A stretch of 63,290 nt of DNA, counting the filler, from Hausera hauseri (Eukaryota), in assembly GCA_046269625.1 (NCBI GenBank). It is 12 parts of 12 records of this genome, joined end to end, with 100 filler letters (N's around TTAATTAATTAA, not from the genome) between each part and the next. Parts side by side here need not be neighbours in the genome. Positions count along the whole stretch, not along the records: positions 6,660 to 11,999 come from JBJURY010275285.1; 11 more parts are not named here. One strand, written 5' to 3'. Of the stretch, positions 1 through 38,181 are shown piece by piece. A program made the translations under genes and the position numbers. How positions within the stretch are numbered: the first letter of the stretch is position 1; every line of letters begins with the position of its first letter. Below the pieces are notes generated by a model, which worked only from the letters and a program-made list of their open reading frames with translations, did no database searches and was not told where the DNA came from.

Positions 1-423
1 CGAAAACCAATCAATCGATTGAAATTCTAACTGCACATTCAGAGACAACAGAAAGTGCACTACCGATTGCACCCGGTCCCGCACCCTATTGATCCATTTT
101 TAAAATCTCGAAAAGCCAATATTATTGATTTTTGCACACTTGCACATGCGCTGCACACTTGCAGTGTGCACCAATCGATGCACCTTGATGTGCTCTATCG
201 ATTAGCACAAAGTGCTAATCGATTCGATCAATAGTGCACTGTGCAGCGATCGATAAGTGAAAAGTGCAAAAGTGCCCTTAGCAACGGTGCCTGGCGGCAC
301 CGTTGCTAGGCACTTTATGTATCGATAGTGCACAATGTGCACTATCAATCGGCACATGTGCAAAATCGATTTATCGATTATCTCCCCCCCGTGGTGGCGC
401 ACAAAGTCCATTTTCCCCCTACT
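1..423 (-). repeat. Dispersed hairpin-rich repeat 'A' (probable Polinton-type TIR; terminus AGTAG at 423)
   Basis: Perfect stems at 197-223, 279-308 and 324-346. Related copies at 12100-12620, 13603-13815, 13869-14482, 16953-17180 and 63159-63290. Reverse strand begins AGTAGGGGGAAAATGG. Confidence 0.75.
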
Positions 424-3400
424 CCTTCTTATCATCTGCATTCTTTTCTGTTTGTGACTCTACTGCCTTCTGACAATCTGCATCCTTTTCTCTTTGTGTC
501 TGTACTGCATTATGATAATCTGCATCCTTTCCGTTTATGTCTATACTGCCTTCTGACCATATGGGTCCTTTTCTACTTGCCTCTGTACCGCACTCTTATA
601 ATCTGCATATTTTTTTGTTTGTGTCTGTACTGTTTTCTAACAATCTGCGTCGCTTCTGTTTGTATCCGTACTGCATTCTAACAATCTGCATCTTTTCTGT
701 TTATGTCTGTACTGCCTTCTGATTATGTGCATCCTTTTCCGTTTGTTTCTGTGCTGCGTCCTGACAATCTGCATCCTTTTCCGTTTTTCTCTGTGCTGTC
801 TTCTGACCACTGCGTTTTTTACTATTTATGTCTGTACGAAATTCTGACAATCTGCATCATTTCTGCTGTGTATGTACGGCATTCTGATAGTCTGCATCCT
901 CTCTGTTTTTGCCTATACGGCATCATGACAATATGCATCTTTTCTACTTGCATCTGTACTGTCATCTGATAATCTGCATTTTTTTACGTTTGCGAATGTA
1001 CTGACTACTGATAATCTGCATCCTTTTCTCTTTACGTCTATACTGCTTTCTGAACATCTGCATCCTTTGCTGTTTGTGTCTGGGCTGCCTTCTAACAATC
1101 TGAATCTTTTCTGTTTGTGTCTGTACTGCATTGTGACCATACGCATCCTTTTCTATTTGTGCCTGTACTGCAGTCTGATAATCTGCAACCTTTCTGTTTA
1201 TGACTATACTGCCACCTGAAAATCTGCATTCTATCTGCTTGTGTATGTATTTTATTCTGACCATCTGCATCCTCTTCCTTTTGTGTCCATAATGCTTTCT
1301 GATAATATGCATCCTTTTACCTTTGTGTCTGCACTGCATTGTGACAATCTTCAACCTTTCCCTTTTTGTATATATTGCCCTCGGATAATCTGCATCCTTT
1401 CTCTTTGTGTCTGTACTGCCTTCTGACAATCTGCATCGTTTTCTATTTGTATCTCTACTGCGTTCTTACAATCTGCATCCTTTCTGTCTATATATATATT
1501 GCCTTCTGATAATCTGCATCCTTTTCTATTTGTGTCTGTACTACCTTCTGAAAATCTGCATTATTTCTGTTTGTGTACGTACTGCATTCTGACAATCTGC
1601 ATCATTTCCGTTTATGCCTATACTGCCTTCTCAAAATATGCATCCTTTTGTACTTGCCTCTGTACTGTCATCTGATAATCTGCATCTTTTTTTGTTTGTG
1701 TATGTACTACATTCTGACAATCTTCATCCTTTTATCTTTGAGTCTGTAAGGCCTTCTGACAATGGGCATCCTTTCCTATTTGTGTACATACTGCCTTCTG
1801 ACAAACTGCATCCTTTTACTTTTGCGTCTGTGCTGCCATCTTACAATCTACATCCATTCCTGTTTTGTCTGTACTGCATTCTGACCACTGCATCCTTTAC
1901 TATTTCTGTCTGTACTACCTTCTGACAATCTGCATCCTTTCTGTTTGTGTACGTACTGCATTCTCAAAATCTGCATCCTTTTCTGCTTGTTTGTACTGCC
2001 TTCTGACAATCTGCATCATGTTCTGTTTGCGTCTGTCTTGCCTTCTGAAAATCCACATCCTTTTATGTTTGTGTCTGTACTGCCTTCTGATAATATGTTT
2101 CCTTTCTGTTTATGTCTGTGCTCTCTTGGGACCATCTGCATCCTCTTCTGTTTGTGTCCGTATTGCTTTCTGACAATATGCATCCTTTTCAGTTCGTGTC
2201 TCTACTGCATTCAGGCAATTTGCATCATTTCTGTTTGTATCTGTACTGCCTTCTGACCATCTGCGTCCTATACTATTTGTGTCTGTACTACATTCTGACA
2301 ACCTGCATCTTTTCTCTTTGTGTATGTACTGCCTTCTTACAATGTGCATCCTTTTCAGTTTGTGTATGCACTGCAATATGACAATCCTATTCCTTTCTTC
2401 TTGGGTCTATACTGCATCCTGACCTTTTGCATCCTTTCAGTTCATATCTGTACTGCCGTCTGACAATTTGCATTTTTTTCTCTTTGTGTCCCTACTGCCT
2501 TCTGATCATATGCATCCTTTTTCGTTCGGCCCTGTACTGCATTATGACAATCTCCATCCATCTGTTTGTGTATATGGTGCCTTCTCACAATCTGCATTCT
2601 TTCTGTTTATATCTGTACTGCCTTCTGATAATCTAAAACCTTTTCTCTTTGCGTCTGTACTGCCTTCTGACTATCTGCATTCTTTTCTGTTTGTGTCTGT
2701 ACTGCCTTCTTACCATATGCATCCATTTCCGTTTGTTTCTGTACTGCATTCCGATGATCTGCATCTTTTTCTCTTTGTGTATATACTGTCTTCTGAAAAT
2801 CTGCATCCTTTACTCTTTGTGTCTGTACTGCCTTATTACAATCTGCAGCCTTTCTGTTCATACCTGTTCTGCCTTCTTACAATATGCATCCTCTTCTCTT
2901 TGTGTCCGTACTGACTTCGAAATATCTGCATACATTTCCGTTCGTGTCTGTACTGCATTCTGAAAATCTGCATCCTTCTCTTAGCGTATATGCTGTCTTC
3001 TGATAATCTGCATAATTTTTGTTTATATCTGTACTGCGTTCTGACAATCTACATCTTTTTCTGTTTGCGTCTGCACTGCCTTACGAAAATCTCACTGATT
3101 TTCTCTTTGTGCCTACACTGCCTTCTGTTTATATGCATCCTTTCTCTTTGTGTCTCTACTGCCTTCTTACCATCTGCATCCTTTTGTGTTTGTGTCCGCA
3201 CTGCCTTCTGACAATCTGCATCCATTCCTGCTTGTGTCTGTACTGACTTCTGACAATCTGCATTTTTTCTGTTTGTGTCTGTACTCTCTTCTGAACACCT
3301 GCATTTTGAAAATCTGCATCCTTTTATAATTGCGTCTGCTCTACACTCTTACAATCTGCATCCCTTTCCTTTGTGTCTCTACTGCATTCTACAATCCTCG

Positions 3401-5750
3401 TCCTTTGTCTTTATGTATATGCTGCCTTCTGTCCATATGCATCCTTTTCTACTTGCGTCTGTACTGCCTTTTGCTAGACTACATCTTTTTCCTTTTGTGC
3501 CTGTACTGCCTACTGATCATGTGCATCCTTTCCCCTTTGTGCCTGTACTGCATTCTGAAAAACTGCTTCCTTTTCTGTAAGTGTCTTTGCTGCCTTCTGT
3601 CCATCTGCATCTTTTTCAGTTTGTGTCTGTACTGCATTCTGACAATTTGCATCCTTTATTTTGTGTCTGTATTGCATTCTGATAATCTGCATCCTTTCTG
3701 TTTATATATGTACCGCCTTCTGACAATCTGCATACTTTTCTATTTGTGTCCGTACTACCGTCTGACAATCTTCATCCTTTCTGTTTTTGTATGTGCTGCC
3801 TTCTGACTATCTGCGTACTTTTCAGTTTGTGTCTGTGCTAATTATGACAATATGCATTCTTTCTTTTTGTGTCTGTACTGCATTATGAACATCTGCAACC
3901 TACCCTTTGTGTATATACTGCCTTCTGACAATCTGCATCCTTTCCGTTTATAAATGTATTGCCTTCATTCTGCTGCATCCTTTTTAGTTTGTGTCTGTAC
4001 TCTCTTCTGACCATCTGCATCTTCTTCTGTTTCTGTCCGTACTGCTTTCTGACCATCTGCATCCTTTTCAGTTTGTGTCTGTACTGCCTTCTGGCCATAT
4101 GCGTCCTGTTCTATTTGTGGCTGTGCTACATTCTGGCAATCTTCGTCCTTTGTGTTTTTGTATGTACTGCTTTCTGATAATCTGCGTCCTTTTTAGTTTG
4201 TGTCTGTACGGCATTCTGACTATCTGCATCTTTTTTCTTTTCTGTCTTTACTGCCTTCTGACAATCTTCATCCTTTCTGTTTATATCTGTACTGCCGTCT
4301 GACCATCTGCATCCTTTTCAATTTGTGTCTGTGAAGCATTCTGAACATATGCATTCTTTTCAGTTTGTGTCTATACTGCATTCCGTTCATTTTCATCTTT
4401 TCTGTTTGTGTCTGTACTATATTCTGACAATCTTCATCCTTTCTGTTTTTGTATGTACTGCCTTCTGACCATCTGAATCCTTTTCTATATGTGTTTGTAT
4501 TACCTTCTGACAATCTGCATCATTTCTCTTTGTGTATTTACTGCCTTCTAACTATCTGTATCCTTTTCAGTTTGTGTCTGTACTGCATTCTGACAATCTG
4601 CATACTTTGCTTTTGTGTCTGTACTGCATCCTGGCAATCTTCGTCCTTTCTGTTTGTGTCTGTACTGCCTCCTGACAATCTGCATCTTTTTCTCTTTGTG
4701 TCTATACTGCGTTCCTACCATCTGCTTACGTTTGTGTATTTACTGCATTCTTTTAACCTTGTGACAAATGGAAATTTGATATAAGATTTTGCCTCATTTG
4801 CCCTACTAACTTCCTCTTTTCTTCCCTCAAATTCACTATAATCATACCCTGTTCATCCTTTTCTCTTTGTGTCTGTACGGCCTTCTGATGATCTGCATTT
4901 TTTCTGTTTATATTTACACTGTCTTCTGACAATCTGCATTCTTCCTCTTTGTGTCCGTGCTGCCTTCTGACCATCTGCATCCTTTTCAGTTTGTGTCTGT
5001 ACTGCATTCTGGCAATCTTCGTCCTTTCTGTTTGTTTCTGTACTGCCTTCTGATCATCTGCATCTTTTTATGTTTGTGTCTTTTCTCCCTTCTTGCAATC
5101 TGCATCCTTTCTGTTTTTGTATGTACTCCCTTCTGGCCATCTGCATCCTTTTCGATTTGTGTCTGTTCTACCTTCTGACAATCTGCATCCTTTTTTGTGT
5201 GTGTACTGCATTCTGACAATCTGCGTCCTCTTCTGTTTGTGTCCGTGCTGCCTTTGACCATATGAATCCTTTTCCGTTCTTGCCTGTACTGCATTATGGC
5301 AATCTGCGTCCTTTCTTTTTGTGTATGTACTGCATTGTGACAATCTGCATCATTTTCCGTTTGTTTCTGTACTGCCTTTTAACAATCTGTATCCTTTCTG
5401 TTTATATCTGTACTGCATTCTGACAATCTGCATCCTCTTTTGTTTGTGTCCGTACTGCCTTCTGACCATATGCATCCTTTTCCGTTCGTGTCTGTACTGC
5501 ATTATGGCAATCTGCGTCCTTTCTTTTTGTGTATGTACTGCATTGTAACAATCTGCATCTTTTTCCTTTTGTATCTGTACTGCCTTTTTATACTCTTTAT
5601 CATTCTGTCTGTGTATATGCTGCCTTCTGGCAATCTGCATCCTTTCTCTTTATATCTGTACTGCCTTCTGACCACTGCATCCTTTTTAATTTGTGTTTGT
5701 ACAGTTTTTTGTCCATCTGCCTCCTTTTATGTATCTGCTGCCTTCTTTTG
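424..5750 (-). repeat. Tandem array of ~42-bp units (~125 copies; some 41-bp units)
   Basis: Approximate consensus TGACAATCTGCATCCTTTTCTCTTTGTGTCTGTACTGCCTTC. The ORF track shows 14-aa periodicity. One minus frame reads DADCQKAVQTQREK. Confidence 0.95.
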
Positions 5751-6071
5751 ACCTTGTGACAAATGGGAATTTGGTATGAGATTCTGCCTCATTTGCACTA
5801 CTAACTTCCTCTTTTTTTCCCTCAAATTCACTATTATCATACCCTGTTCTTGATCTTTTCCCCTTAACGCATCCACCTGCCGCATTATCTGTTACATTTC
5901 CTTCTCTTTTATTTCACTAATCGCTCTTGCACCTTTCTGCCTCTCTTTTATCTGCACCTCAAAAAGATTTTTAAAATTTACGTGCAACCTGCCTTCTCTA
6001 ACGTCATCCATTTTTATCGACTCTATACTTTCATTGGGATCAGTTTCTTCCTCAAACGGATACAGCGCCAT
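424..6071 (-). pseudogene. Decayed gene: charged/coiled-coil N-terminus followed by 14-aa KAVQTQ repeats
   Basis: From the ATG at 6071: MALYPFEEETDPNESIESIKMDDVREGRLHVNFKNLFEVQIKERQKGARAISEIKEKEM*QIMRQVDALRGKDQEQGMIIVNLREKKRKLV..SQGQKKAADT*KEADGQKTVQTQIKKDA. This runs in frame into the array. Confidence 0.6.
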
Positions 6072-6659
6072 TTCTGTTCTATTCTGCTTTCAATACGTAT
6101 TTTTTCCTGAGTATTATTTCTTTCCTGAGTCTTATTATAACATTGTCGCATTATATTAGTCTTAACAAAACTATAACATACACACACACGAATATTGTCA
6201 TAGACATTTTATGTCTTTAACTAAACAACATAATACATTTTGTCAAATAACATAAGACTTAATAAAACTATTTATCTCACATTTATAATATTGTCTGTAA
6301 CACAATATATAAAAAACAGTATTATACCTTTCTTGTTATATTATTTTTTATTAAACCTGTATATAACATATAAATCATTATTAAAACTAAATAACACAAA
6401 CTAATAAAAATTTATTCCAAACTAAACATTATGTGCATTAGCACTGATTCTACATGCTCCACGCACTGTAAATCTCCTTCTCCGTTGTAAATAGAGAAAT
6501 ATAAACTAATTCTACCACACTGCGGACACTTTGAGTTTTGTTGTATCCACTGCCTTATGNNNNNNNNNNNNNNNNNNNNNNNNNNNNNNNNNNNNNNNNN
6601 NNNTTAATTAATTAANNNNNNNNNNNNNNNNNNNNNNNNNNNNNNNNNNNNNNNNNNNN

Positions 6660-9600
6660 GAATACGGGCTATAGCCCATCAATAATAAGGAAGCAAAAGG
6701 GTTGATCAAGATCACCACTGAAAGGAAAAAAGCGGGAAAAACCGAATTTCAAGGCATTGACGTAATAGATGTCTCGAACCTGAACACTCCAGATGTGGAG
6801 CTTACAGAAGTTCCGGATACTGCAAGTATCATCACAATAGTAGAGGACGCGAACAATGAAATGAACGAGATATTTCCACTTCCGGAGAGCGAAAACAAAA
6901 TTGAACGCACGGAGCGAATTAAGAGACTCGACGGAAAAGTATGGCGGATCAACAAGTCATGGAAAAATGCAGATAAATTAAAAGGGATTAGGACAGCTGC
7001 AACAGACCCAGAGACAATACGGCGCAACCTAAAGGAACTGGAGCATATAAAAACTCAAATAGATGTGTCTGGAAAGGAACAACAGTTCGCTGAGAGAATG
7101 TATAAATAATTCAAAGGGTACCTTGAGGAAGACGTTAGAAGGGAAAAAGAACTATAAGAACCGGACGAAGCTATTGAGATATCAGTTAAAGGATGGATGA
7201 CAAAACTAGACTCGTGGACAAAAAGCGGAATCGATTTCACTGACACATGGAATAACGAAGTGATAGGGATAAAGAGTAATGTGGCAACTGCCGAAGCATT
7301 ACTAAAGACATTAGACGCGGATCCAAAACAGAAGAGAACAAGGCGAAATTTAGAGAAGTTAATGGTAGAAATAGAGGATGCAATGATATATCACCTCAAG
7401 AATAAGGTGATAAGCGTACTAGATGAGAACGAATTCGTAATACTAGGAATAAAACACGTAGACGCTCCTCTCGTAATGGAAATGTGCAAAATCGCGTTCA
7501 GTGCGCCCAAGGAATATGCGGATGTATAATACGCTGCATAACCTCCCAAGATGAAAGACGCTCTGAAGTTTACAGATGTAAGAATAAGATAACAAAAATA
7601 GACAATCAAGAAACGCAAAACGTAGTGAAAGCGTGTAATATGAAACTGGACGAATATAAGAACGAAGTTAATTACGTTAAAGGAGAAATGGACTATATCA
7701 AAGGTCCGCATGACAAGTTAAATGACGCCTATGAGAGATTAGAAAAAGGGATATATGCAAAGCCGATGATAGATAACCAACTGAAAGAATGGATCGATTT
7801 ACTAGACAGATCGGCAGATTTAACGAAATATCGTTTAAGGAAATATTCAGAAAGTGAGCCAATATCTAAACAACAACTAAAGGAAATACTCCGTCATCTA
7901 GGCGCATTAAAAACAGAAGCAAAACTTCGAGTTGAATTTAACGCTTATTAAGATCAAAATTTATGAGCAAAAACCAGGAACGAAAACTCATAGAAGAATT
8001 ATATACGATGATCGGAGAAATGGAGTTATCGGCGAGAAAAGAAAAAATCTCTCTTTCTACATAATTAAAGCACATCCGCCTAGAAGGTGTACGACAATTG
8101 ACAACATCATCATGCGTGCGAATAGGCAGTAGGCACCAACCAGAATTATCATGCCAAATGGATTGAACTAACGAAGTACTGTCGACACACACCAGAAGAG
8201 GTTAAGTTCCTAAAGAGACTGATCGACAAAATAGATACAAATTCATAAACCTTGAATAAAATGCGCGAATTAATTTCGTTGTTATCCACCATGGCAGAAA
8301 TAGATGATGACAAGACACGACAGTTGACAACCCAAGTTAGAGACATAAAAGAACTGCGAATTCACACAAAGCGGAGAGCTACAAAGTTAGGTGAACTAGA
8401 TAAGGAATTAAAGATCTATAGTAATAAATATAAGTTTACGCGATCAGAGATAACAAATAACAAGGAGTTTTCACAAAGATGGCTAATGGATGTAACTACC
8501 GAATTAACGGATTATGAAAGAAAAGGGATGCGCCCTGCGGATAAACTAGGACCGACATTAAAATCGGTACAAATTGCTTGCGGAAATGAAATAGAGTTTC
8601 GGACCGACTTAATGAAAGAGATTCAATTGAGATTAAACGAAATTCGCGTGAATGTGAAAAATGCAGACGCAGTTTATCTAGACTATGGACTTCCAGTCGC
8701 CGCAGACGATACAGGATGAGACGCTTAATTGGAAGATATGTATAACCGAGATCTAAGAACATCCATCCAACTCCAACAATTGGACACATTCCCAGTGAAC
8801 CGACGATTCAATGTGGAGATGCTCTTAGATCGCGCATTAGCCGAAAAAGACCTAATTGGACAAGTTAACGTAAGTATGACCGAAAACAAACTAAGATAAT
8901 TAATTCCTACGTTAACTAAATTACCAAGCGAAAATGCTGGTTATAGTTCAGTTACCAGATTATTGATAAAGAAATACACCGAATTCTTGATGACTAAAGA
9001 CGAAACGACGATTAAAGTAAAAATATCAGCCTAAGGGATGGAAGAAAGAGAAATCGAATGTACCACAGAAACCTCAGTTAGAGAAGTTAATCAATGGATA
9101 GTGCAAAATAATAGTAAGGACGGAGTAAATTATCGATTATACTTCCGAGGCAGGATACTGGATGAATCCGAACTACACAGGGACGTTGGAATTATTCCAG
9201 AGGAATCAAATAGTATAGTGTCCATAATCAACGATGAACAAACAAAAGACGAGGCCATAAGAAAAGCAAGAGATGAACATTGCGTAGGACGCATTATCGG
9301 AGTTTAAGACCCTGATATGTATTTCGACTATCTCCAAAGCGAGGAAGATAATGAACAATACGATAAAAATTTAGTGCCGCTCAGTAAAGCAATACCAACT
9401 GTGCCGAAACAGAAACGACCAGTTGGCAGACCAAGAAAGGTAAGAAATAAAGATGACCATAACGTAACCTTAATCCGAGAACTAAGACAATTGTCAATGC
9501 CAGCAATTAACTCAGATAGTGAATAATTGAACGAATTGCTAAGAAACCTTATAAGAATAGTGAATTATTCGGGACTAAGAAATACATACAAACGGAAAAG

Positions 9601-9948
9601 AAAAGGACAATATACAACGTTGCAAGAATAATAAGAATATCTGGATTCAAAATGCATAAAAGCACCTTATCCGATGAAGCCTTAATTAAGGAAATTATGG
9701 TTGAGAATACTAAAGAAGAATTGTGGAATGTGATATTGTACTTAGCGATAAAAAGAAACTTATTACGGGAAAACGAATTCAATAGAACTATTGGGTTATT
9801 CCGGGAGGCCACCAGGAAAATACCAAGGGATATAAATTGGTTAAGATTATTTAACGACGAAAAGGAAAACAGGCCGACCGCTAGAATTGCAGACGTGGTG
9901 AGAGACTTAATACCACCCAATGCAGCACGAAATGGTGAATCGAGTTGG
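6660..9948 (+). pseudogene. Long decayed reading frame(s): coiled-coil region, ubiquitin-like domain, AT-hook
   Basis: Chain of co-oriented intronless ORFs; those starting at 7484, 8252, 9038 and 9317 share one frame. Ubl-like TIKVKISA*GMEEREIEC..SVREVNQWI..YRLYFRGRILDE..DVGI (~9008-9235). AT-hook RPVGRPRK (~9416-9440). Confidence 0.6.
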
Positions 9949-11893
9949 ATGATTAAACTAATAACGCGTATGATGTTAATAAGACAACTCGGTGCGATTA
10001 CGGTATATGATTGAGATAAGTTTATAATAGGTCAAAAATATTTCCTAATGGATCTGGAACTATGCGAATACGCCAGACCTCATAAGGTAGTAACCATCGA
10101 AAAAAATATTTCTTGTATCAGCAACGCGAACTAATCGCAATAGATGGAACAGAGTGCATGCTACGATGATCGCGAAGTATTTTCCATTGAGGAAATATTC
10201 ACGGACATTCATCGATGGTAAAACCAACAACATCATTAATCCCTATGGACTTAGATCGACAACAATGCAAACAAGCCAAGGAAACCGGAAGATGGAGATG
10301 GGACGGGATGTAGTTAGAAGCCCAACCTGGAAAAATAATTCGGGTATACAAAGTGGCAGTGGGTAGATTGGATTTGCATACAAAATACTGTAACGGGGGT
10401 GAATATGACACGGGGAAAGGAAAAGAAGGAGGAATAGTATTCGATTTCTACAAGACAAAAATGAGAAACAAAAAGGTAATGTTCCATAGTGTTACGAAAA
10501 CCTATACCGAAAACCAGAAGTGTCACATTCAAAATAGTGACTGTCCCTTCAGGAACTCAATAATTATTTGGATTCCACCACCCTTAAATGACTACAACTT
10601 TATCAGAATAAAAGAAATAAATTTTAATGAAACCACGAGAAAAAGATATGTGGACACAACTGACAGTAATGCCGGGTCAACGAAGGACGTGGCCGAGCAA
10701 CCCACCCCCACAATGCTAATATCCGAGGACCACGGGTTAAAATTTATTAAAAACAAAATGCTTTCGCGATGTAATGTAGTGATGTGTGCCAGCAATTATG
10801 ATGCATTCTTTATAACAGAAGCTGCAATAACTACTTTCGCTCTAGAAACACAAGACGTAAGAATAGAAGAATGTTTAAAGAATAAAGACGATTATTGTTA
10901 ATGCAAAGGGCAAATTGGATTAGCGGAAATATATTACAAAGTGATTGCGAATGAATGTAAATTGGATATAGAAATCATGTGGACCAAACTGGCCTTAACC
11001 TACGCAAATCTGGAACTAGCATCATCCGTTATTCCAATGAAAGAAGGTGTTTTCGGAAGAGTCACTGGGGAAGTCCAGTTAACTTATGAATGCGAAAAAC
11101 GGGACGTATCTATAAACATAGAAGAAAAACGTTGTATGCAAGAATTGCCGGACCTATACCAGAACGTACCTCAATTGGCTATGCCACTTACGAGAATCTT
11201 ATTGGAAAACTCAACGCGCCGAACGATCTTAAAAGAATGTAAAGCCGGTTTAGGGCAGCCTGTGTTTAGGAGAGGTGAAACAGACTGTATGAGTCTACCG
11301 AATGGAGGGATAACCGCTGAGCCCAGCAAATTAACTGGGACAAACTTGCTAAAGGGTATAACGGACGACAAGTTCACCAACACCTCAAGTAAAGGGATTT
11401 GCAAGCCAAAGGAAATTGAGGCTTTTAGGCATTTCCTAGCTTTTCCACGACAACGTACACATGAATTAAACAGAGCCATGTCGACGGTAGTGGATGACAC
11501 TTGTTATCAGGCAAAATGGGAATCCCCACTTGGCGTTAATCATTATCAAAGATTTGATACAGAAATTTTCGGACAAGCTGCATCTGGATTGTTGGCTATC
11601 TACTTTTTAGTGCAACTGATAAATGTCACAATTTAGTCCGTTATTAATGGCTATGAAATATTTACCCTAACTGGATTTTCATGTAAAATCTTAACCACAA
11701 TTAAAACATCCTTTGGAAAATTTTTAAAAGCTTATGAAAAGAATAAATGGAAAAGCGACGCTGAGAGGCATTCTGGTTATTACAATCGTAAACGGAAGAG
11801 AAATATAAAACTACGAAGGAACGATTCAGATGATGATGTACCTAAGGGAGGAGACAGATTCTCCAAGATACACAACCATAAGTCACACACGAC
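9949..11893 (+). pseudogene. Chuvirus-type (Jingchuvirales G / Anakin env-like, class III gB-like) glycoprotein, decayed
   Basis: Hydrophobic leader plus ITVYD* (YDC motif). GVFGRVTGEV..YEC..V..RCMQELP..Y....MPLTRIL..C. C-terminal FGQAASGLLAIYFLVQLINVTI*SVINGYEIFTLTGFS resembles the TM/GY..GWS region I recall for this family. Contains stops and frameshifts. Confidence 0.8.
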
Positions 11894-11999
11894 TGTGAGG
11901 ATATAATTGATAACAGAAGTTTTGAATTTAAATCAGATACAATTTTAAATTTAAATTAAGATTATAATTTGGAGTAATGTAAAAAATTTAATTAAAATT
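11894..11999 (+). mobile_element. Start of an LTR of the same Gypsy family as 38182-38348
   Basis: TGTGAGGATATAAT..; 49 of the first 59 nt match the reverse complement of 38290-38348. No PPT immediately upstream. Confidence 0.75.
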
Positions 12000-15030: not shown

Positions 15031-15615
15031 CCATGTGTAAGTGTCACTTGTGAAAATGTCTCTGTGGTTTCAAGGACATGTGTAGTAATTTTATTAGAAA
15101 AAAATCCAAATCATATATTACGTGTCCAGAAAAATTTTAATTTCATGTAGTTCTTGGATAAACACCATAGATGTAAAGGGTAACTATGACATCTTCAGTT
15201 CTATCAAAAAAAAATTGACATCATATCATATGGATGATGTTTTTATCTCATTGTAAGAGCCACAGATTCCAGCAAACAAAAATAGTCGGAACTGATCATA
15301 AATTGAACGCTGCTTAGCAATTCATTGGAGACTACACTAAATCACAACCCTCTCAGCCAGTTGGAGAGAGCGAACTGCATAATCTGTGTTTAAAGACTAA
15401 CAGCTATTAGTCTTACTGGGAAATGGGATTTTAGATTAAAACTCAGCCCTGGAGAAAACAATCTGTACTTGATTTGTTTAAGCTCCTGAAGTCATAAAAA
15501 ATGTGTCTGTGGCCTCTCTTACTCATGCTCCTTAAAGTCAGTTTCTGTGTTTATCTTTTGTTCCACTCACAGAAGAAGCGGTGACAGAATCTTTTCTTGA
15601 TTTCGTCTTACACAC

Positions 15616-16047
15616 CTGAGCGTCAAGGATCCGGACGCTGTAGAAGAGCCAGTAGGAGACGACAAGGAGAAACACCAGCACGGCCAGGAGGACCTGGAAC
15701 ACAAAGACGCGCGGGAGTCCGGCCCGCGGCGGCCTGAAGAAGAGCGCCCAAACGGCGAGCAGCAGGATGAGCAGCTTGAAGGCCACGGAGATGAAGAGGC
15801 CCTCGCAGGCCGTCCCGCAGCTCTGCAGCTTCTCCGGCCACAGGATGCGTGGCAGTGTGAGGAAGGCCAGCGGCGTGAGGAACACCAGCAGGCCCAGGAT
15901 CACAGCGATGGTCCGGGCGAAGTATCGGCGGCAGTCGAGCCCCACGCTGTCCTCCAGGTCCTTAGTGATGCGTACGATGTCCTCCTGAGAGAGGCTGTGC
16001 TCCGACGTGCCGGTGATGGCCGTGGTGGTCTCGCCCCAGTTGTCATC
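15616..16047 (-). CDS. vangl1: Internal exon of vertebrate (teleost-like) Van Gogh-like protein 1
   Basis: [67 protein letters not shown]. ttcttccag acceptor at 16048, GT donor at 15615, 432 nt with phase 0/0, strongly GC-rich codons. Confidence 0.9.
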
Positions 16048-16952
16048 CTGGAAGAAACCAGAACAGATGATTCAGCCATGAAGCTTGTCCACAGGTTAAC
16101 TTTGATAAAGAGCATTCTGGTGTTTGAGACCAGTGATGNNNNNNNNNNNNNNNNNNNNNNNNNNNNNNNNNNNNNNNNNNNNTTAATTAATTAANNNNNN
16201 NNNNNNNNNNNNNNNNNNNNNNNNNNNNNNNNNNNNNNACCACAATGAAGTTGCATTAGAAAGACATATCGCAATAAAGTTGGAACAGAAAGAAATATTG
16301 CAATAAAGTTGGAACAGAATCAAATATCACGATAAATCTTAAGATGACTTAAAAAACTTTTTTCAAATGAGTTTTATTTTGTACAAAACAGAAAAATCAA
16401 ACGTATGATTCCAGACATAATTTGCTGTACAGTATTCAGGGAAGAAAATCTGAAGGCTGAATTGGCTTGCAAATCGTCCGCATATGGATCTTCTTGCAAC
16501 AATGAGAGAATGGAATCTAAATCATGTAAATTAATAACAATAAAAGACACATTAGCAAAAACTGACTTCAAACACTGCCAGATTTAAACGCAAGTTTAAA
16601 AGAAGAGATTAGAAATGACTATTTAATCATATTTCAGTTCACTACAGCATGTATTACACTTTTCAAAGACTCATAAGTGACAGAGTAACACAAGAAGGAA
16701 AATTAGTTGATTGTGCCAGTGATGACTAGTGACAAAACATAAGTATCAAACAGTTGAGATGGACCTGGTACTTGTTTTAACAAATAAAAAAACGTTGAAT
16801 CTTGTGCCAGGATGGTGGATTACGTCCACAGAGATCTTGAAATACGTAGATTTCGTTTAGTTGATATCTTAGAATTTCACAATCTTAGTTTACGTATGCG
16901 TGTTTCATCACGTCCACTGGAACACTTAAAGATAATAATAATATGTACATTC

Positions 16953-20950: not shown

Positions 20951-21741
20951 ATTAATCATAACAAATAGTATCCGCTGTGTCGTTGAAGAATCGCAGTATT
21001 GAATACTGAATGATTCATAAATGAGATACTATGAGCTACATCTTAGTAGCAACGTTTTAAATTGTAAGTTCAACAATTTCATAAATGTATCAAATGGTAC
21101 AATAACCGAAATCAAATTAACACATCAAACGCAAATAGTGCGGTACCNNNNNNNNNNNNNNNNNNNNNNNNNNNNNNNNNNNNNNNNNNNNTTAATTAAT
21201 TAANNNNNNNNNNNNNNNNNNNNNNNNNNNNNNNNNNNNNNNNNNNNAGGTGCCAATGTCGAATTCTGTATGGAGTCTTGATAAGGAATTGCAGACTTTA
21301 CAAATCTCTCTCAACTTTCGACCGTCACTCAATATTCAATGACAGTAATATTTATGAAAGAATTATTAGGTTAACAGATGTCATTGATCATGGCATGACA
21401 TAGTCCAGATCCTCTCTCGCTTCACTTAGGAACAAAAATGTGTGAAACAAGGATGTGTTGCTACATTTGTTGGGCACTTACAAGAGTCGTTCAAGGCTTA
21501 CTGACTAACGCTAGAAAGATTAAATTTGTGGTGCATGTAACCTTGTTGAGTAAAAATGGTCATGTATAACGTCTTCAGCAACAATGGCAGCGAGCTGTAT
21601 CTCTATACATTGCCTAAAATTATTATCTCCCTTCGATAATGGAACTAACAAAACATCAGGAATGCAAGCATTGTGTATTAATCCATTCATACGTGAGTGT
21701 GTTTATGCCAGTATCAGGCTCATACTAATTTGTAACCAATA

Positions 21742-23162
21742 AGTAATGAGTTATGCAGAGTTAGGTTAGTATTTCAGATGTTAACAAACGAATAAAAAGG
21801 ATTAATTCACGCGCAAGATGGCGGCGGGGTCACGTAACGGGTACCTGGGTAGATAAGGGGATTACCTGGGAGATAAGTGGGCGATAATTGTAGTTGATAG
21901 ATACTGTGTTATATAATGTTAGGTTTGATAGGTGTCTGTAGTTGTGTATTGTTACGTAAGTAAGCGTACCCATGCAGGAGGCGTGATCGGTAAGGGGGAG
22001 ACAATTTTATAAAATTTTATTATTATTAGATTTTTATGTAATATGGTGATTTATGTTGTTGGTTGGGTACTGTTTTTTTTTCTTCTTGATGTTGTAATGG
22101 TGAGCTAGTTTGCTACCTGGGTAGATAAGAGGGATTAATTTAGGCGCAAGATGTCGCATGAATGAAAAGGGAAAGACAATTTAGAGGTGGAATGACTTAC
22201 ATAAGATTTAATTCAGGCGTGTATAGACAAAGAGGATTTAATTCAGGCGCAAGATGGCGGCTGAAGGGTAAGGAGAGACAATTTTGAGGTGGAACGACTT
22301 TTATATAAGACTTAATTTTGGCGTGTATAGACAAAGAGGATATAATTCAGGCACAAGATGGCGTCTGAAGGGTAAAGGGGAGATAAGTGTGAGGTTAGAG
22401 GTTTTTATATAATGATAATTCAGGCGCAAGATGGGGTCTGAATTTAAGGGAGATAAGTTTGAGGTGTAGAGGCTTGATATAAGATTTAATTCGGGTGCAA
22501 TATGGCATCGCGTCTGAAGGATACTGGAGTAGATAAGGGGAGTTCATTTTGGATATCAGGGTGAGCATAATTGCCTTGTAGATAAGTGCTCTGAGTACGG
22601 ACACCAAACATGATAAGAGATAGCAAAATACAGTGTAGTTCGACTGGCGTGTCATGGTGGTTATTCCTTGTAACTGTATACTTTTATAACATACACACAT
22701 ACACGCATACTTAAATACAACAAAATGCCGATTTATTTACAGTGTGTTTTATTTACGTTAAAACCTTTTTGAGTTTAAGCTTTCTGCGTAGTTTCTTTAT
22801 TGGTCTCTGTACAGGTTTGACTCCCATTGTTGCATCATCATCATCGTGCATTGGGACGTGTAACTGTTCATTTGATGTTCTGTGCGCTGACTGATCAATG
22901 ACGATACAAAGTTCTGTAAATAACCGTTAGTTGGGCTTTGTGCAGACTCGTCATACACTGATGAAAAGGTCTGCATATGATTGCTTTGCGTGGCTGTCTT
23001 GTCATAAAATGGTAAAAAGTTATGTAATGGCTCAGTGTCAATGAACGACATAAGTTTTGTCAGAGGCTCGGTTTGCATGGCCACGTCTGTTATTGCGTAT
23101 TGTTCTAGAACGTCTTTTGGAACTGTTATGTAGTTGATGACAGATAAAATGTCACTCTGCAC
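21742..23162 (+). repeat. Left TIR (~1.4 kb) with subterminal repeats
   Basis: Reverse complement of 29186-30919. Repeated ATTCAGGCGCAAGATGGCG units. Confidence 0.9.
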
Positions 23163-23372
23163 GGCAACGAGTAGTTCAATCTCTTCACGAGTTAATGAAT
23201 TTACTGTTTTCGTTGGGAACTTTTTGTAGCTTTCACCAAAGTATCTTCAAATATGCACCAACACTTTCTTTCGATACGAGGAAACTATAACTAACTTGGC
23301 TGGACCTATCGGTTTTGCCAACACAGCATCCCCAGTTATGTAGACACTGTTATCAAACCGTGTAAACATCAT
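22797..23372 (-). pseudogene. PC4/Sub1-like ssDNA-binding domain protein
   Basis: IGPAKLVIVSSYRKKVLVHI*RYFGESYKKFPTKTVNSLTREEIELL resembles the PC4 pattern V.V..F.GK..IDIR.Y....P..KGISL..EQ. One in-frame TGA. Confidence 0.65.
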
Positions 23373-23399
23373 GAAAACAGAAAGATCCTCTAGGTGTGT

Positions 23400-23917
23400 G
23401 TGATTTGCTTATATACCGTTATAACCAGGATAACCTGGATGTATGTTGTCATAGCTATTTATACAAGTCTGGTTTCTCCGCAACCAAATGATTCTATCGT
23501 TGACGTGTTGTCTCATAGACATAAAGGACATGAGAACACATCGCATGTAGCCCCTCTGGATTTAATGAGGATGAAATAAATGACATAGAGTCCACAATCA
23601 TTACTAAAAAGGCCTTGTAAGGGACGTGCATTATAGACGAATTCTCCATCAGAGTTACACTTAATAAAATCATCAATGTCAGTGTGGAGTGGTGGAAGTC
23701 CAAATAAATCCAAATAGTGAAATGTGCCAATGCCGTCATAGTACAAGGCTACCCAGTGTGTACTGTGTAGGTTTCTGGAATCTCTATTTATGACAAAGGC
23801 TGCCGGTTTTGTTGGATTGATGCGTTTGAATAAAATGTCATGGGGCACAACTCTGATGGGATGTCGGTGGACGAAAATGTCAGAGTGTAAAATTGTTAGT
23901 ATTTGTTCAGTGTTCAT
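23400..23917 (-). pseudogene. Adenain-like cysteine protease (Polinton PRO)
   Basis: VINRD..STHWVALY..YLDLFG..PLQGLFSNDCGLYVIYF (His/Asp/Gln/Cys catalytic pattern). Confidence 0.88.
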
Positions 23918-23922
23918 CTTTT

Positions 23923-25209
23923 CTAGGCAGGGTAATCCATTAACACTTGTCTGGTTTTGGAAATTTCAAATATAGAGTCTTGTTCCGCATACACAATGAC
24001 TTGTAAGGGATGGGGTGTCATGGAGGAAAATTTAAACTTCAGTGAAAGAGGTCTATTTTTCACAAGTTCAAACTGGTCCTCACCCAAACGACTGGGACTT
24101 AATACCAACGCGGAAAGAGCGTAACCATTTTTAAAATGTCTATAGTTGACTTTGCAGCCGGCATCCTTACTGATCAGACCCATGGCTAGATTGGTTCTGA
24201 AAAAGGCTCGGGCATAATGGTCGCACTTGAAATCCACATGGCCGTTCGCCCATCGACGGTGACGTTCAAGTACATCAAACCAAAAAGTTGAAAGTTGAAC
24301 GGATTATTTCTGTAGGTGCCATTACAAGCCGAGGAATTTACTATTCCAACCATGATGCGAGTGGGCGTTTGACTGCGGAAAAAATTGTCTCGAATTTGCA
24401 ACAACATTCCTTTGGGTATGGACAATGTCTTTATCATGACTCGTTTGATGGAATATTTTGCGGTCGAAGTAGTCAAGGTCTTTTCGTGGGCCAGAGGAAT
24501 GGCCGGATTTAATTAGGCTTTCCTGACAACAGGATGCCAAAAGTGATAACTGATTTATAACCGAACAAGGGATCATCTGATATGAAGTTGAACGCGTCTT
24601 TAGAAGGGGTGAGTTTGATCTTCACGTGCACTCCGTTCAGTATGTAATGGTCATGGCTAAAAATGTTGCAGTGTAACTTTCCCATCATATCCACTTCTCA
24701 ACTACTGCCGGCCAACTCCTGACGCGTTTTTAGTCCGACGTTAGAATCGCCTTTAGCTTCATCAAAATAATTTGGCATGTCGTTGTAAAATAGTGCCGCT
24801 GTCAGTTTACCCCTCTTCGCTTCCTGACAGTAATTTAAAGTGGCTTAGAGGTAATATCTGTAAGGGTACGTGTTTTCACTTGGCATGATTAACGCGTCGT
24901 TCAGGGTGACGTCCACTTGTGAAAATAAACTGTATGTAATTATTGACTGGGGCCACTTCTGCACCATCTGGTAAATTATCACCATTGGCCAAAGTGACTT
25001 TGGCCCGCATGTGCAGAAAGGTATTAAACAAATCTAGATACTCTTTGCAGCTTCCAGATATAAATTCTATGGGCGCCACGGGTGTGAGATAAGTGAGAGT
25101 GAATTTCCACAAACTGACCTTCCTCTATCGCCGTTTGTGTTGGAGGAATACTAAACAAATCCAAACCAGAATGGAAGCATTTACACGAACTGGGGTGAAT
25201 CAAAGCCAT
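23923..25209 (-). pseudogene. Polinton major capsid protein (double jelly roll), frameshifted
   Basis: SGLDLFSIPPTQTAIEEG, YLDLFNTFLH, GKLHCNIFSHDHYILNGV, NPFNFQ, VIVYAEQDSIFEISKTRQVLMDY. Confidence 0.88.
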
Positions 25210-25229
25210 GTCTTTAATCAAAATATCAG

Positions 25230-25688
25230 CATACTTCCTTCCTCACCGTTTCTTGGACTAGTTGTGAGAACTACTTGCGGTCACTGTCGGTTTTATTCTT
25301 CTACTAAATGGTTTGTTGGGCGGTGTGGCTTTTCTTTTATGATGCATGCCATCAACCATTTGGTTCCCCACAACATGATTCACTGCACCTTGCAACAGTC
25401 TCTGTCCGGCCACTTTGGCTCGATCTCTAAATGATTCACCAACGTTTTGACCAGTTAACGCTTCCTGGGCCACTTGCAAACTCGTTCTAATCCCTTCCCT
25501 GATATAGCTTTGCCTCCAGGCTTTAACCACCGGAAGATCATTCGACCCAATCTGCTAAAGAAACTATCAATGCCTCTTCCACGTTGACTTCTGCCGACGA
25601 CAAAAACGGGAATTCCGTCTCCGGCTTGACTACGGTAAAAGTCTTCATAAACCTCGGTGCTTCGATGTAAAAGAGTGTGTCTGACCAT
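25230..25688 (-). pseudogene. Small basic Polinton core/virion protein
   Basis: YEDFYRSQAGDG..QRGRGIDSFFSRLGRMIF (xGxG followed by an amphipathic helix). Lies immediately upstream of MCP. Confidence 0.65.
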
Positions 25689-25691
25689 CTT

Positions 25692-26440
25692 TTATTGCAA
25701 ATCAGAATGTCTCCTAGGTCGAAAATGTAACATCACCACCGAAGAGCCGTTTATAAATGGGATCTTTTGTCCCAGGTCGTTGGTTAAAAGTATTTCCATG
25801 GTGTGAAAGGAAAATCGACTCAGTGGCAGGTAGTGGGGTTTGTCGTAAATCCGAAACACAGAGGTCAAATTTCTATCCAAAACAGGCACAATGGGTAACA
25901 AAAACACCATGACATCTCTGACGGGTCTCGCTGCAATGATATCGCAGTACACGTAAACGTTTCTTATGTTGCTTGTCAAGATTCAACTGTGCTTTACCTA
26001 TTGAAGCGAGTCCTTGTCTGTTATATGGTTTTTGATAGTCCCAATATATTTTTCAACTTTTCGCTAATGATAATGTCCGCACTCGACTCGAATCTTTCCA
26101 GTCCGGTGGTTTTCTGTGTTTTATGGTAATGGATTTTCAACGGCACCAATTTGGCTCCTTTCACGCGTGAAATTAATTCAACAAAGGATTGGCTGGCGAC
26201 TTGTAGAGTTCAGGACTTATTCGTAACTTAAAACGATGGCTTAGTGCTGTTTATGTGCGGAAGGTAATGTAACCACACTTCATTCTCTAGAACGTTAAAG
26301 TAACTGTTTGGGAATTAAATCTCCATCAAAACGACCTCGTAATTAAAAGTTTATTCTGTGGTTTGTGGGAGTTTCACGTAAAAGTTATCCGGAAACGTTT
26401 TCATGAAGGCGTTGCTCGGCAGCATCATGTAAAAACTCAT
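25692..26440 (-). pseudogene. Putative Polinton minor capsid (penton) protein
   Basis: MSFYMMLPSNA..FPDNFYVKLP N-terminus; VYVYCDII..LLPIVP..PHYLPL..EILLTNDLGQKIPF..MLHFR C-terminus. Confidence 0.7.
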
Positions 26441-26699
26441 ACTCACATTCAGATCTGCAGATTAGGTAATATATAACCCAAACAAGTGGAGAGCAGAACG
26501 ACCCATAACTTATTGTCGTCGTTACCATAAGAAGGTTGAATAGCAACATGGAGATGATGATATATATAACCAACAACTGTGAGATGAAAACACCTCTACG
26601 CGTGAATCAGTTTATCAAACCAAAATCAGGAAATGGGCCTCTCTCTTCGCTTAGTTTCCGCATTTTGTTCTTGCTCGGGCATGCTAGTCTTTATATCTC

Positions 26700-27712
26700 A
26701 AAATGTGTTTTCCCAAAATCTGACTGTTGAATGACGAATTATAACCAAACCATTTCACTAAATATTCTTAACTGCCCGCCGTTCACCTTTCTCACATAAT
26801 GTTTTCTGTTCTGTAAACTACATTCTCTCTGACTTTCTGGAGCTCTTCTTTGTAAAACAAGCCTCACAGTTCCTCGCCGGCGTCGTCTTTGAGCACATAA
26901 GTTATTTGACTTGTCCCATTTACTTTGCTGATGGTAAACAATTCTTCCGTCCAAGCTGGAGTGTAGCCTTTTTAAAAGGTTGTCTGTTATGTCCAACTCA
27001 GACATGGTCCCCTTCCGTAAATGCTTTTCTGCCGACGGCGTCAGAGGCTGAATACAAATTGTTCCACACTTCTTCTTGATTGTCAAAATTAACTTGCACT
27101 GGGGCCATGCAAATGCTTCTATGATAAGAAGGGTTGTAATTTAGAATCAAATCGTCTATCACGTCTACGTTTTGGTAAAGTATCACCACATTTTTTCTTT
27201 TAAGGTTTGGTTAAAATGCTCCACGACAGCCACCTTAACGTCTTCATTTTCCATAGTGAAGAAATGCACGCCTTGGTCTTTGAGAAACTTGAGGAATGTT
27301 TTGTTGAGAAATTCGCTTCCTTTTCAGTTTGTAACGCAATAGGCTACAGTCAGACAAAAATTTTGCTCATGGCCTCCACCAGCTCCTTGCCGGTTTTCTT
27401 CTTTATGGGAAAAACCCAAGCATATTTACCAAACACATCTATAAACGTCACTAGATACGACAACCTGTAGTTGTATGTTTTTAATGCGTGCATGTATATC
27501 AGATCAGGCTGAAGCTGGTGACCGATGCCGCTCATTATTATGGGTCGCAAAGTAAATTTGTGACAAACGGGTTTTAAGAGTATAATCAACTTGGTGACTT
27601 AACCATTCATTAACTTTCTTAGCCTCGATTTTTGTAGTGTGATGTAATGCCACAACACCAGAAAAAGCACCCGAATGCTACGGGTCATATTAATGTTTTC
27701 GTAAAATCTCAT
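26700..27712 (-). pseudogene. Retroviral-like integrase (Polinton c-INT), possibly with C-terminal chromodomain
   Basis: HQLQPDLIYM..YLVTFIDVFGKYAWVFPIKKKTG and LILNYNPSYHRSICMAP. Confidence 0.88.
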
Positions 27713-28222
27713 TTATTTTGTGGACCATGTTTCCCAATTGGGCTTGTTTTTTTCTTTATGCCGTTTCTCAGGTTATGAAACACGGATATTCTTGATCTCC
27801 TTTTAGTAGAGGAGGGCGGTGTTTGCGATATTTTAGTAACAAGTATCGGCGATTGAGGTCTTTTGGTACTGGTCATTGACGCTTGAGGCATTTTAGTAAC
27901 GGTCATCAGGGATTGCAGAATTATATGCGAGACTTCGTCTTTAAGTACAGTCAGCGAGATGTCATTGATGGTTGGGGAAAGCAGCGTTGTTTCCTTGATG
28001 TCCACTACCCCTAGAGATTTGTGCCTGTGCTGTTCTAGTCTAGTCAAATAACGCTGCAACGTTTGTTGATACAATCTGGCTTTGTCTCGTGGCGATAAAT
28101 CGTCTCTTTCCAAAATTCGTTGTATTTCATAATCCGTATCGGAAATTGTCGCTCGTGGCGTCGGGTGGAACGTATTGCTTTTGGTTCATAGTCTCTAAAA
28201 ACCGCGGGTCCATCAAAATCAT
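27709..28222 (-). pseudogene. Conserved Polinton hypothetical protein
   Basis: DYEIQRILERDDLSPRDKARLYQQTLQRYL motif; positioned between the small virion gene and INT. Confidence 0.55.
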
Positions 28223-28231
28223 TCTCCTGTT

Positions 28232-28511
28232 TTAAAAACCCAACACGCCTTTCACCATTTTCAGTATAGGATCCAATAAAGCTCCTAGGAAACCTCCTTG
28301 TTGGAGAATCTGTTTACGTTTTTTGATCAACGGGTTCTTTTTGGTTAGTTTGCGCAGACCCGTTTTGTAACGACGCAAACGACTCTTCTGATCCTGAATG
28401 AGGGGAATGTAACCTTTTTACACATTGTAGCAACACTCGCACAGCGCTCGCATGAGATTCGGGGACGCCGATTTCATTACAGCCTTTATGTCGGGTAAGC
28501 GTGGAGTGCAT
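28232..28511 (-). pseudogene. Small Polinton protein with basic stretch and QGGFLGALL tail
   Basis: CECCYNV*KGYIPL..QKSRLRRYK..KKRKQILQQGGFLGALLDPIL; possible adenain xGG cleavage site. Confidence 0.6.
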
Positions 28512-29118
28512 TTTGGGATGTACACGATGTGTCTCTCATGAAGTAATATAGCGCTACATTACCTTAAATTGTAGGGTGTTTCCTAACGAAAATCGAGTAA
28601 CAAATAACCTTGAGGTTTCGATGTCGTAACCTTAAAATTGTCTTGTACATATGAACTACAACCTGGGTACATCTGATTGGCCAAGTTGATAATCTGTGAA
28701 GCATCTTTGGGTTTTTTAAAATGAGGTAATGGGAATTTAAGCTTGTGATACGGTGTTCCTTATTTATTCCAAAAAGGTTTTTGATAATGTACACGATGCT
28801 GAGATTCCGGTGATGACTTCCCTTTGTAAAAAGTTTGGTTACTCGGTCGTCAGTTTCGGTCATCAGGTCGTCGATGACCACTAACCGTCTCTTGTCTCCT
28901 TACCATTGTTCCACGTCTGGAAGACATTCAATAAATTGCACGTCTGTCATCTTTTCGTACACTGATTGCCACTCCTCATGACACCATATAATCTCCTCCA
29001 TCACGGGACGACCATGTCTGGAAGATGCGCTAAAAACTCACGCACAAAAATGGTTTTTAGTGCTGCCGATCGGTCCCACTATAAGGACAGTAATAGGATG
29101 TTTCCACCCATGATCCAT
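28510..29118 (-). pseudogene. A32-like packaging ATPase (Polinton)
   Basis: HPITVLIVGPIGS.KT (decayed Walker A); LVVIDDLM (Walker B); LFTKGSHHRNLSIVYI; ITSLNSHY. Confidence 0.9.
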
Positions 29119-29185
29119 ATTCTATACTGTTGTGTTCCTATGCCCCTTATAAATATATATTTCAAAGAAAAGACCGGGTCGGATA

Positions 29186-30919: not shown

Positions 30920-31849
30920 CCAATAGTGTATTGTAATTTTTTATTGTTAGGTCAATATTGCCTACATTCCTAATGAAGCTTCTTTTGCAATGCCAAGTGG
31001 AACGCAACTTAACCAAGTACCACGTGGATCGCTGCTCCTGTTAGATCCTATGGCATCGGCCCCTGGAAACAGGTACAAACTGTCCACGGATATGGTAGAG
31101 GAAAACATTGAGAATTTACAGTCCTCCCAGGTGCCAATGTCGAATTCTGTATGGAGTCTTGATAAGGAATTGCAGACTTTACAAATCTCTCTCAACTTTC
31201 GACCGNNNNNNNNNNNNNNNNNNNNNNNNNNNNNNNNNNNNNNNNNNNNTTAATTAATTAANNNNNNNNNNNNNNNNNNNNNNNNNNNNNNNNNNNNNNN
31301 NNNNNTTTATGAGGTGCACAAGCATCATCTCGGACCGTTTACTCGGTCTAGGAAGATGATGGTTATGCATTGCCCTACATACCCACGCTACTGCAATACT
31401 AAAGTGCACAACATTAGTGGTTGTCATAGTGCAATGGAGCAGTACTATGGAACCACAACGCTGCACAATGAACGGGCCTACTTTTCTCCCCGTTGTTCAA
31501 TAGTTGCTGAAATCAACTATGAATAATTCTATAATATGCACAAGGACCACTTAAACTAGTTTAAGCGGTCGAAAAAACAATTAGTTATGGATTCAACTAA
31601 AAGCAGCAGCATCCCCTCAACAACCAGTAGGAGACGTCAGGCCTCAACAAGTCTTGACGACTTAATCAGAAACAGTACCGAGTAGCAGCAGCAACAGAAG
31701 CAGCAGGAACAGCATCAAAAACAAGAACAGGAGCAACAGGAAGCCAATATTCCAATTACAGTCAAGTATGATCTGAACTGATCGTACATGGACATAAAAG
31801 TGAACATGTCGGCGAAAACAACAACAACGCAATTGAGACATGTTCCGCA

Positions 31850-38163: not shown

Positions 38164-38181
38164 TGAAAAGTTAACACCAAT

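Follow-up and report, generated by a model that had tools for sequence, protein, structure and literature searches.

Giant gypsy-like long terminal repeat (LTR) retrotransposons of planarians, Burro/GYPSM1, have a first open reading frame (ORF1) that encodes 4,873 amino acids (Arkhipova and Yushenova 2019, PMC6431247). In the description given there, ORF1 is arranged as Gag, Smc-like, MATH, BIR, Ubi2/SUMO-like, and BCL2 motifs followed by an env that lies in frame before the protease, and it also contains ankyrin repeats. The env matches the fusion glycoproteins of mononegaviruses, and decayed copies are reported in a third species. Here we describe a contig (JBJURY010275285.1) of the Hausera hauseri assembly GCA_046269625.1 that probably, at a rough probability of 0.8, is what remains, in decayed form, of the middle of a giant Ty3/gypsy LTR retrotransposon of this Burro/GYPSM1 (Gag-Env-Pol) kind. 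The contig occupies positions 6660-11999 (5.3 kb) of the window, the 63,290-nucleotide stretch of DNA that was analyzed, which comprises 12 small contigs separated by artificial linkers of 100 bases. Because the linkers are artificial, the contigs beside the relic are uninformative on linkage.

Envelope glycoproteins of a similar type are found in several other systems. GAG-ENV-POL errantiviruses with an Env of the herpes simplex virus glycoprotein B (gB) type have been reported from Nematoda, Bryozoa, and Platyhelminthes (Chary and Hayashi, eLife, PMC13524379); that study lists intact elements, and its nine flatworm entries are from Macrostomum, Prostheceraeus, and Schmidtea. Related glycoproteins are described for Jingchuvirales and for the Anakin elements of the BEL/Pao group (PMC10084718, PMC12440569), and nematode Mavericks are reported to carry a gB-like class III fusogen, MFUS-1 (10.1101/2022.07.12.499685). 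The H. hauseri relic is most likely a divergent, dead relative of an already described kind of element rather than a new virus. The evidence comes from the family and fold of its Env, the place of the Env in phylogenetic trees, a shared ubiquitin-like (Ubl) module, many diverged relatives in sequencing data, and the 3' end, where a foreign LTR begins.

Coding state of the relic

Decayed coding sequence spans 6660-11893 on the plus strand. The cheapest reading path on that strand has a cost of 30 (15 stops and 5 frame changes), compared with 95 ± 5.5 (minimum, 83) for 100 Markov-resampled controls and 51 for the minus strand. The upstream part by itself gives 21 against a control value of 62 ± 4.9. 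These costs uphold the coding relic proposed in an initial annotation of this DNA over 6660-11893, although that annotation overlooked the start of a foreign LTR in the last 106 bases of the contig. It had also placed the upstream region and the glycoprotein leader in the same ORF, which is not the case. The frame with the Ubl domain and the AT-hook-like motif closes with a pair of stops (9629 and 9632); the frame of 9652-10014 is a different one, open from 9523. The glycoprotein frame has interruptions of its own, a stop at 10012 and a shift of frame near 10095-10107, and the 5' edge of the contig falls in mid-frame, at a linker. This copy is dead, and none of the ancestral products can be encoded intact.

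For the domain searches, the pieces of the relic were handled frame by frame, with X at stops. No reverse transcriptase (RT), integrase, or RNA-dependent RNA polymerase family in Pfam was matched by the six plus-strand pieces of the reading path, which leave out about 10100-10196 of the glycoprotein frame; the initial annotation had likewise seen none of the three.

Family and fold of the glycoprotein

Positions 10197-11903 match the Pfam family PF24664 (Monjiviricetes_fusion) with an E value of 6.9e-26, covering profile positions 89-612 of 653. The match belongs to a chuvirus-type Env whose ectodomain (10003-11561, plus strand) is broken by stops at 10012, 10167, 10188, 10311, and 10899. The ectodomain is followed by a transmembrane segment (11562-11654, plus strand) with a stop at 11634. 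This segment is the sole hydrophobic peak in the five pieces scanned and corresponds to helix 448-478 of the predicted Env model. From the codon spacing compared with that in the relatives, 11655-11893 on the plus strand would be a shortened Env tail or linker towards Pol. Immediately before Env, a signal-peptide-like internal segment (9919-10002, plus strand) can be aligned to the segment before Env and the beginning of Env in the stored relatives P0006 (E 5e-8), P0011 (E 2e-7), and P0008 (E 3e-6) and may have had a signal function.

The Env model, built from 81 aligned sequences, has a predicted local distance difference test score (pLDDT) of 79. Its best structural match in BFVD was the glycoprotein of a chu-like virus (E 2.6e-17). 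In a Foldseek search of the PDB every listed row was a herpesvirus gB, the best with E 4.5e-3 and none at 1e-3, and the top five rows of a wide structural search (VIA) were also gB, with Z scores of 5.4-6.5, which is in the middling range. The best gB superposition had a Z score of 6.5 and an rmsd of 6.5 with 206 aligned. The predicted model supports a class III (gB-like) fold by the consistency of these results more than by any single score. The initial proposal of a chuvirus-type, class III-like glycoprotein is supported by the Pfam match, the chuvirus glycoprotein in BFVD, and the gB rows from the PDB. A sequence search of the PDB with the glycoprotein returned no matches, and a word-seeded search among proteins of 312-996 amino acids found none in 5,352 candidates, the relatives being longer or too distant.

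Relatives of the glycoprotein and their phylogeny

The glycoprotein had 118 matches among 1.84 billion representative proteins, and its closest relatives were Ty3/gypsy polyproteins, not viruses. The order in these polyproteins is Gag, accessory domains, Env, protease, RT, RNase H, and integrase. Eleven of the 20 best matches are 1,250-3,250 amino acids long. In 10 of these 11 a retroviral aspartic protease lies C-terminal of the glycoprotein; 5 also have RT and RNase H, and 4 of those 5 have integrase as well. Several relatives have an N-terminal Gag, with CCHC knuckles in P0011, P0025, and P0031. For example, P0031 contains an Arc-like capsid (E 0.007), a CCHC knuckle, a Ubl domain, an AT-hook, a Bcl-2-like domain, and Env, in that order. 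P0124, a cluster member, combines several proteases, ankyrin repeats, and RT, RNase H, and integrase in 4,844 amino acids, close to the length given for Burro ORF1. An unbroken single Gag-Env-Pol frame of 2,693 codons was found in L001, the single related locus among the 593 metagenome contig matches listed; an LTR pair was looked for in L001 and none was found. The best match named as a chuvirus had an E value of 7.5e-10, versus 5e-49 for the top match (names were looked up for 20 of the 118 matches).

In a FastTree phylogeny of 84 Env rows the relic fell within a retroelement clade of 17 rows (SH 100). This tree excluded 36 of 120 rows because they had fewer than 400 residues, P0031 among them. 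In an IQ-TREE phylogeny of 32 rows, which contained 15 of 67 stand-alone rows hand-picked to span the first tree, the relic was again within the retroelement clade (support 100/99). There it belonged to a subclade of 10 rows (99/98) that includes the Ubl- or Bcl-2-bearing P0006, P0010, P0011, and P0024. The chuvirus rows P0029 and P0030 lay outside the clade of the relic in the 32-row tree, and P0091, which is linked to DUF5641 (Pao-type), clustered with the stand-alone set, apart from the relic. The glycoprotein phylogeny places the relic within the Ty3/gypsy clade, with both chuvirus and Pao-type rows outside it. The exact position of the relic in the tree is unsure because its branch is long and it shares only 27-28% identity with its nearest relative. 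With Ty3/gypsy polyproteins as the nearest relatives, the earlier expectation of a DNA-integrating carrier rather than a cytoplasmic RNA virus proved sound. The suggestion of an undescribed element found no support, for Env lies between Gag and Pol in the relatives and the order Ubl-(Bcl-2)-Env is part of the published description of Burro/GYPSM1 (PMC6431247).

Several features of the relatives are of separate interest. P0007 (HBK71150.1) is a Gag-Env-Pol Gypsy polyprotein whose record assigns it, as a hypothetical protein, to a Flavobacteriaceae metagenome-assembled genome; it is most likely eukaryotic contamination. Downstream of Env, P0124, P0011, and P0017 carry a series of tandem aspartic-protease-like domains, of which P0124 has as many as six Pfam stretches; ankyrin repeats and a C2H2 finger are interspersed among these domains. 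In P0007, P0008, P0018, and L001 (about 7700-8520) the frame continues for several hundred residues past integrase; in L001 this part has a hydrophobic segment and a cysteine-containing domain, had no Pfam match, and is possibly a second membrane protein. P0101, a protein of 1,000 amino acids, has immunoglobulin domains before a chuvirus-type glycoprotein and could be a gene-calling fusion.

The accessory region upstream of Env

Ahead of Env, P0011, P0024, and P0031 have in common a helical subdomain and, after it, a ubiquitin-like domain. A profile made from these three sequences scored 18.8 bits on the relic, whereas the best shuffle scored 9.8 bits and none of 300 reached the relic. The best match of this profile across the six frames of the window was at 8888-9220 (iE 0.079), within the part of the relic assigned to the helical subdomain and Ubl domain (8790-9225, plus strand). 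The Pfam ubiquitin family gave E values of 0.022 for the relic and 0.031 for P0031, both below the curated cut-off. These Pfam values are weak but agree with the profile result, and together they support a Ubl module upstream of Env in the relic, as the initial annotation had proposed from sequence. The AT-hook that it had noted is present as an AT-hook-like motif, read in translation at 9413-9439 on the plus strand. The motif is 194 codons before the start of Env in the relic and 191-255 in three relatives, and GRP-type motifs also precede Env in P0008, P0009, P0011, P0031, and P0124.

In four relatives a Bcl-2-like domain lies just before Env. The Pfam Bcl-2 family matched P0010 (E 0.001), P0031 (E 0.055), and P0006 (E 0.2), and P0010 also matched Bcl-xL (E 0.01). 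The corresponding part of the relic (9652-9900, plus strand) is a helical stretch that agrees with this domain in place and length; it had no Pfam match, and a Bcl-2-like profile, tried in three forms, gave no support for the domain in the relic.

The first part of the contig (6660-8790, plus strand) is a helix-rich accessory coding region of about 700 codons, with stops and about three frame changes, whose path cost is far under the null. A Gag profile from four relatives had no match on the contig, which also had no CCHC knuckle. A single-sequence model of 8150-9628 was unreliable (mean pLDDT, 38.5). The coiled coil of the initial annotation finds a partial counterpart in long predicted helices and one heptad-like window upstream, a weak indication given that the helices have a pLDDT of 50-68 in this unreliable model. 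Internal repeats were looked for in the upstream region and none were found. A search with residues 385-800 of P0031 recovered only P0031 itself (1 of 6,299).

The relic resembles Burro, as published, in having a viral-type fusion-glycoprotein Env (in Burro with matches to mononegaviruses and in frame before the protease), a Ubl domain (Ubi2/SUMO-like in Burro) upstream of Env, a long accessory region (that of Burro includes a Smc-like motif), and decay by stops and frameshifts (PMC6431247). In contrast to Burro, BCL2, MATH, BIR, and RING motifs were not detected in the relic, and about 700 upstream codons are unassigned. The comparison with Burro is one with its published description, and the Env of the relic is 27-28% identical to the nearest stored relative. 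A gB-type Env is also characteristic of the GAG-ENV-POL errantiviruses, Ty3/gypsy elements in which it precedes Pol (PMC13524379), as it probably did in the ancestor of the relic. In the supplement to that study the Env row of Smed_errantivirus_1 resembles P0006, P0010, and P0031, as judged by eye; the words ubiquitin and Bcl are absent from its text and its seven supplements.

The 3' end and the copies in sequencing data

The last 106 bases of the contig (11894-11999, plus strand) are 74% identical over 111 columns to 38348-38242 of the window, where the copy follows a Gypsy integrase ORF and a purine tract. No polypurine tract precedes 11894 in the relic contig, and 68 contigs of sequencing run X1 have other letters before 11894. 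The sequence cuts into the reading frame, the final stop of which is inside it. Positions 11894-11999 thus read as the beginning of an LTR that belongs to another Gypsy family, one of very high abundance. This LTR starts 70 codons past the cysteine that follows the transmembrane segment. In 9 of 12 relatives examined, the first protease motif is 99-341 residues past the matching Cys-Pro motif, and in the other 3 the motif was not found. Because the LTR begins before the protease position of any relative, a copy cut at 11894 would be expected to lack Pol. Pol was likely removed by insertion of the Gypsy LTR at that position; we infer the insertion from a contig that ends soon after.

The window has pieces of Gypsy sequence at 36433-40721 on the minus strand, a range that includes 38348-38242. 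They come in the order pol, a purine tract, a short LTR of about 165 bases, a primer-site-like motif, and gag with CCHC knuckles. This arrangement is either a junction between tandem copies or the product of a collapsed assembly, in a family of very high abundance.

Copies of the relic were sought in run X1, the one run listed as containing the stretch and probably from the source sample. No RNA data set was among those listed, a negative that does not bear on expression. At 80% identity or more to the relic contig, 3,321 contigs were found, with depth in 30 of 30 bins. The numbers of contigs with identities of at least 99%, 95-99%, 90-95%, and under 90% were 295, 313, 941, and 1,772, respectively. 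Six listed contigs were identical to the window, with depths of 5-9. The summed depth per bin was 29-7,041 outside the LTR bin and 245,537 inside it, figures that are not equivalent to copy number. This is the pattern of an old multicopy family.

Evaluation of alternative explanations

Several observations weigh against assigning the relic to a giant Gag-Env-Pol element. Pfam and the Gag profile detected no Gag, protease, RT, or integrase on the contig; therefore, membership is argued from Env, the Ubl module, and the order of domains. The contig lacks Gag, Pol, and the element's own LTRs, and the sequences compared, in the Env trees as elsewhere, did not include a named Burro sequence, which leaves the relic short of formal membership. 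The nearest relative is only 27-28% identical, and the branch of the relic has a length of 1.66. The Ubl profile consists of three sequences with segments chosen by eye, and in leave-one-out analysis it was marginal for P0031 (1 of 300). Bcl-2-like profiles gave 3.1 bits on 9652-9900 of the relic, equaled by 19 of 300 shuffles, or 0.4 bits, equaled by 159 of 500. The first 700 or so codons had no Pfam family at the cut-off and no stored relative at E < 0.1. Of the 3,321 contigs of run X1, itself probably the source sample, many may fall in the LTR bin.

The alternative that deserves the most consideration, though it is improbable, is that a Burro-like cassette of accessory domains and Env, lacking Pol, was multiplied by the small-LTR Gypsy family whose LTR begins at 11894, either as captured cargo or as a nonautonomous derivative. 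The relic does adjoin the head of that LTR, and there is no Pol on the contig. However, a polypurine tract is missing before the LTR, the LTR breaks a reading frame whose final stop is within it, and diverged relatives occur in all 30 bins, which fits an old family with a history of its own. It is much less probable that the relic is the env end of a BEL/Pao element of the Anakin type or of an ordinary Gag-Pol-Env Gypsy element. Such elements carry the same glycoprotein family (PMC7642597, PMC13524379), and here too an LTR comes after Env. However, this LTR lacks the polypurine tract, the upstream sequence had a Ubl domain and an AT-hook-like motif and no match to integrase or DUF5641, and the DUF5641-linked P0091 groups with the stand-alone set away from the relic. 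The initial annotation had stated that it would be refuted if the upstream region turned out to be the tail of an ordinary Pao or Gypsy ORF. The outcome is essentially of this sort, except that the region matches the Gag-to-Env accessory region of a Gypsy polyprotein.

Chuvirus glycoproteins and the Env of Anakin BEL/Pao elements share PF24664 and the predicted fold with the relic, yet they are on a separate side of the tree, and they are proteins of about 650 amino acids that stand alone or come after integrase, whereas that of the relic comes after a long accessory region. A fragment of an endogenous chuvirus (Jingchuvirales), with an unrecognized viral N, P, or other protein upstream, is hard to credit and is already largely refuted by the sequence-based tree, in which chuvirus glycoproteins fall outside the clade of the relic. 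Their match scores are also poorer by about 40 orders of magnitude. In addition, more than 1,000 codons precede Env and include a Ubl module shared with retroelements. None of 65 pattern matches among viral contigs was related, in a scan with two exact peptide patterns. No Pfam match to a chuviral L or N gene was found upstream of the glycoprotein, in a library whose coverage of chuvirus N was unchecked. An equally slim chance attaches to the earlier suggestion of a fusogen linked to Polinton/Maverick elements or of a new enveloped DNA element. MFUS-1 is, by its description (10.1101/2022.07.12.499685), likewise a gB-like class III fusogen in a mobile element, though MFUS-1 was outside the set of sequences compared, and about 700 codons of the relic are unassigned. 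Polinton-type pieces also occur in the window (an adenain-like protease, E 0.004, and pPolB, E 1e-4), but these are on other contigs joined by artificial linkers. No Polinton gene, whether pPolB, integrase, ATPase, or capsid, and no terminal inverted repeat was found on the 5.3-kb contig itself, whose flanks are beyond view, and the nearest glycoproteins are fused to a retroviral protease and RT. The proposed Polinton link was accordingly not substantiated.

The Polinton-type pieces themselves are decayed and are on three separate contigs (21248-31205, 31306-36332, and 46247-50656). These contigs also have ORFs that look capsid-like by eye and had no Pfam match.

Other features of the window

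Positions 1-5800 contain a long degenerate repeat of tandem-like type, with a strong skew and several open frames. A GC-rich coding exon of Strabismus/Vangl (15538-16071, minus strand; Pfam E 5e-72) has a vertebrate-like look in an AT-rich assembly and is possibly host DNA or contamination. An uninterrupted frame at 61963-62754 on the minus strand encodes two I-set immunoglobulin domains.

Proposed mode of action and significance

By analogy with its relatives, the ancestor of the Burro-like relic would have encoded one long polyprotein with Gag, accessory domains, an internal signal, Env, a transmembrane segment, one or more proteases, RT, RNase H, and integrase. Gag would lie beyond the 5' edge of the contig, and Pol would have been lost to the Gypsy LTR at 11894. 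Cleavage of the polyprotein by its own protease and by signal peptidase might have released the capsid, accessory proteins, a membrane-anchored Env, and the enzymes. Env could then have provided enveloped particles able to pass between cells, and the element would have multiplied through reverse-transcribed copies that integrated. Host ubiquitin, chromatin, or cell-death pathways may have been the targets of the accessory domains (Ubl, AT-hook, and possibly Bcl-2-like), a function that is hypothetical for Burro as well.

Placing the relic among the known giant Gypsy elements with Env between Gag and Pol removes a candidate for a new enveloped DNA element. The remaining gains are modest, namely, a very divergent branch of the clade with an accessory region of 700 unassigned codons, and a further sign that the block of helical and Ubl domains, AT-hook, (Bcl-2-like domain), and Env is conserved across distant members. 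A host that is not a free-living flatworm would extend the range over which Burro-like elements are known. A more tentative and rather doubtful extension is that the relic comes from a Burro-like enveloped retrotransposon lineage that was formerly abundant, has diverged deeply, and occupies a host group without listed members, and in which a new helical accessory set of about 700 residues replaced MATH, BIR, and RING. If so, giant Gag-accessory-Env-Pol elements would swap host-manipulating cargo across flatworm lineages.

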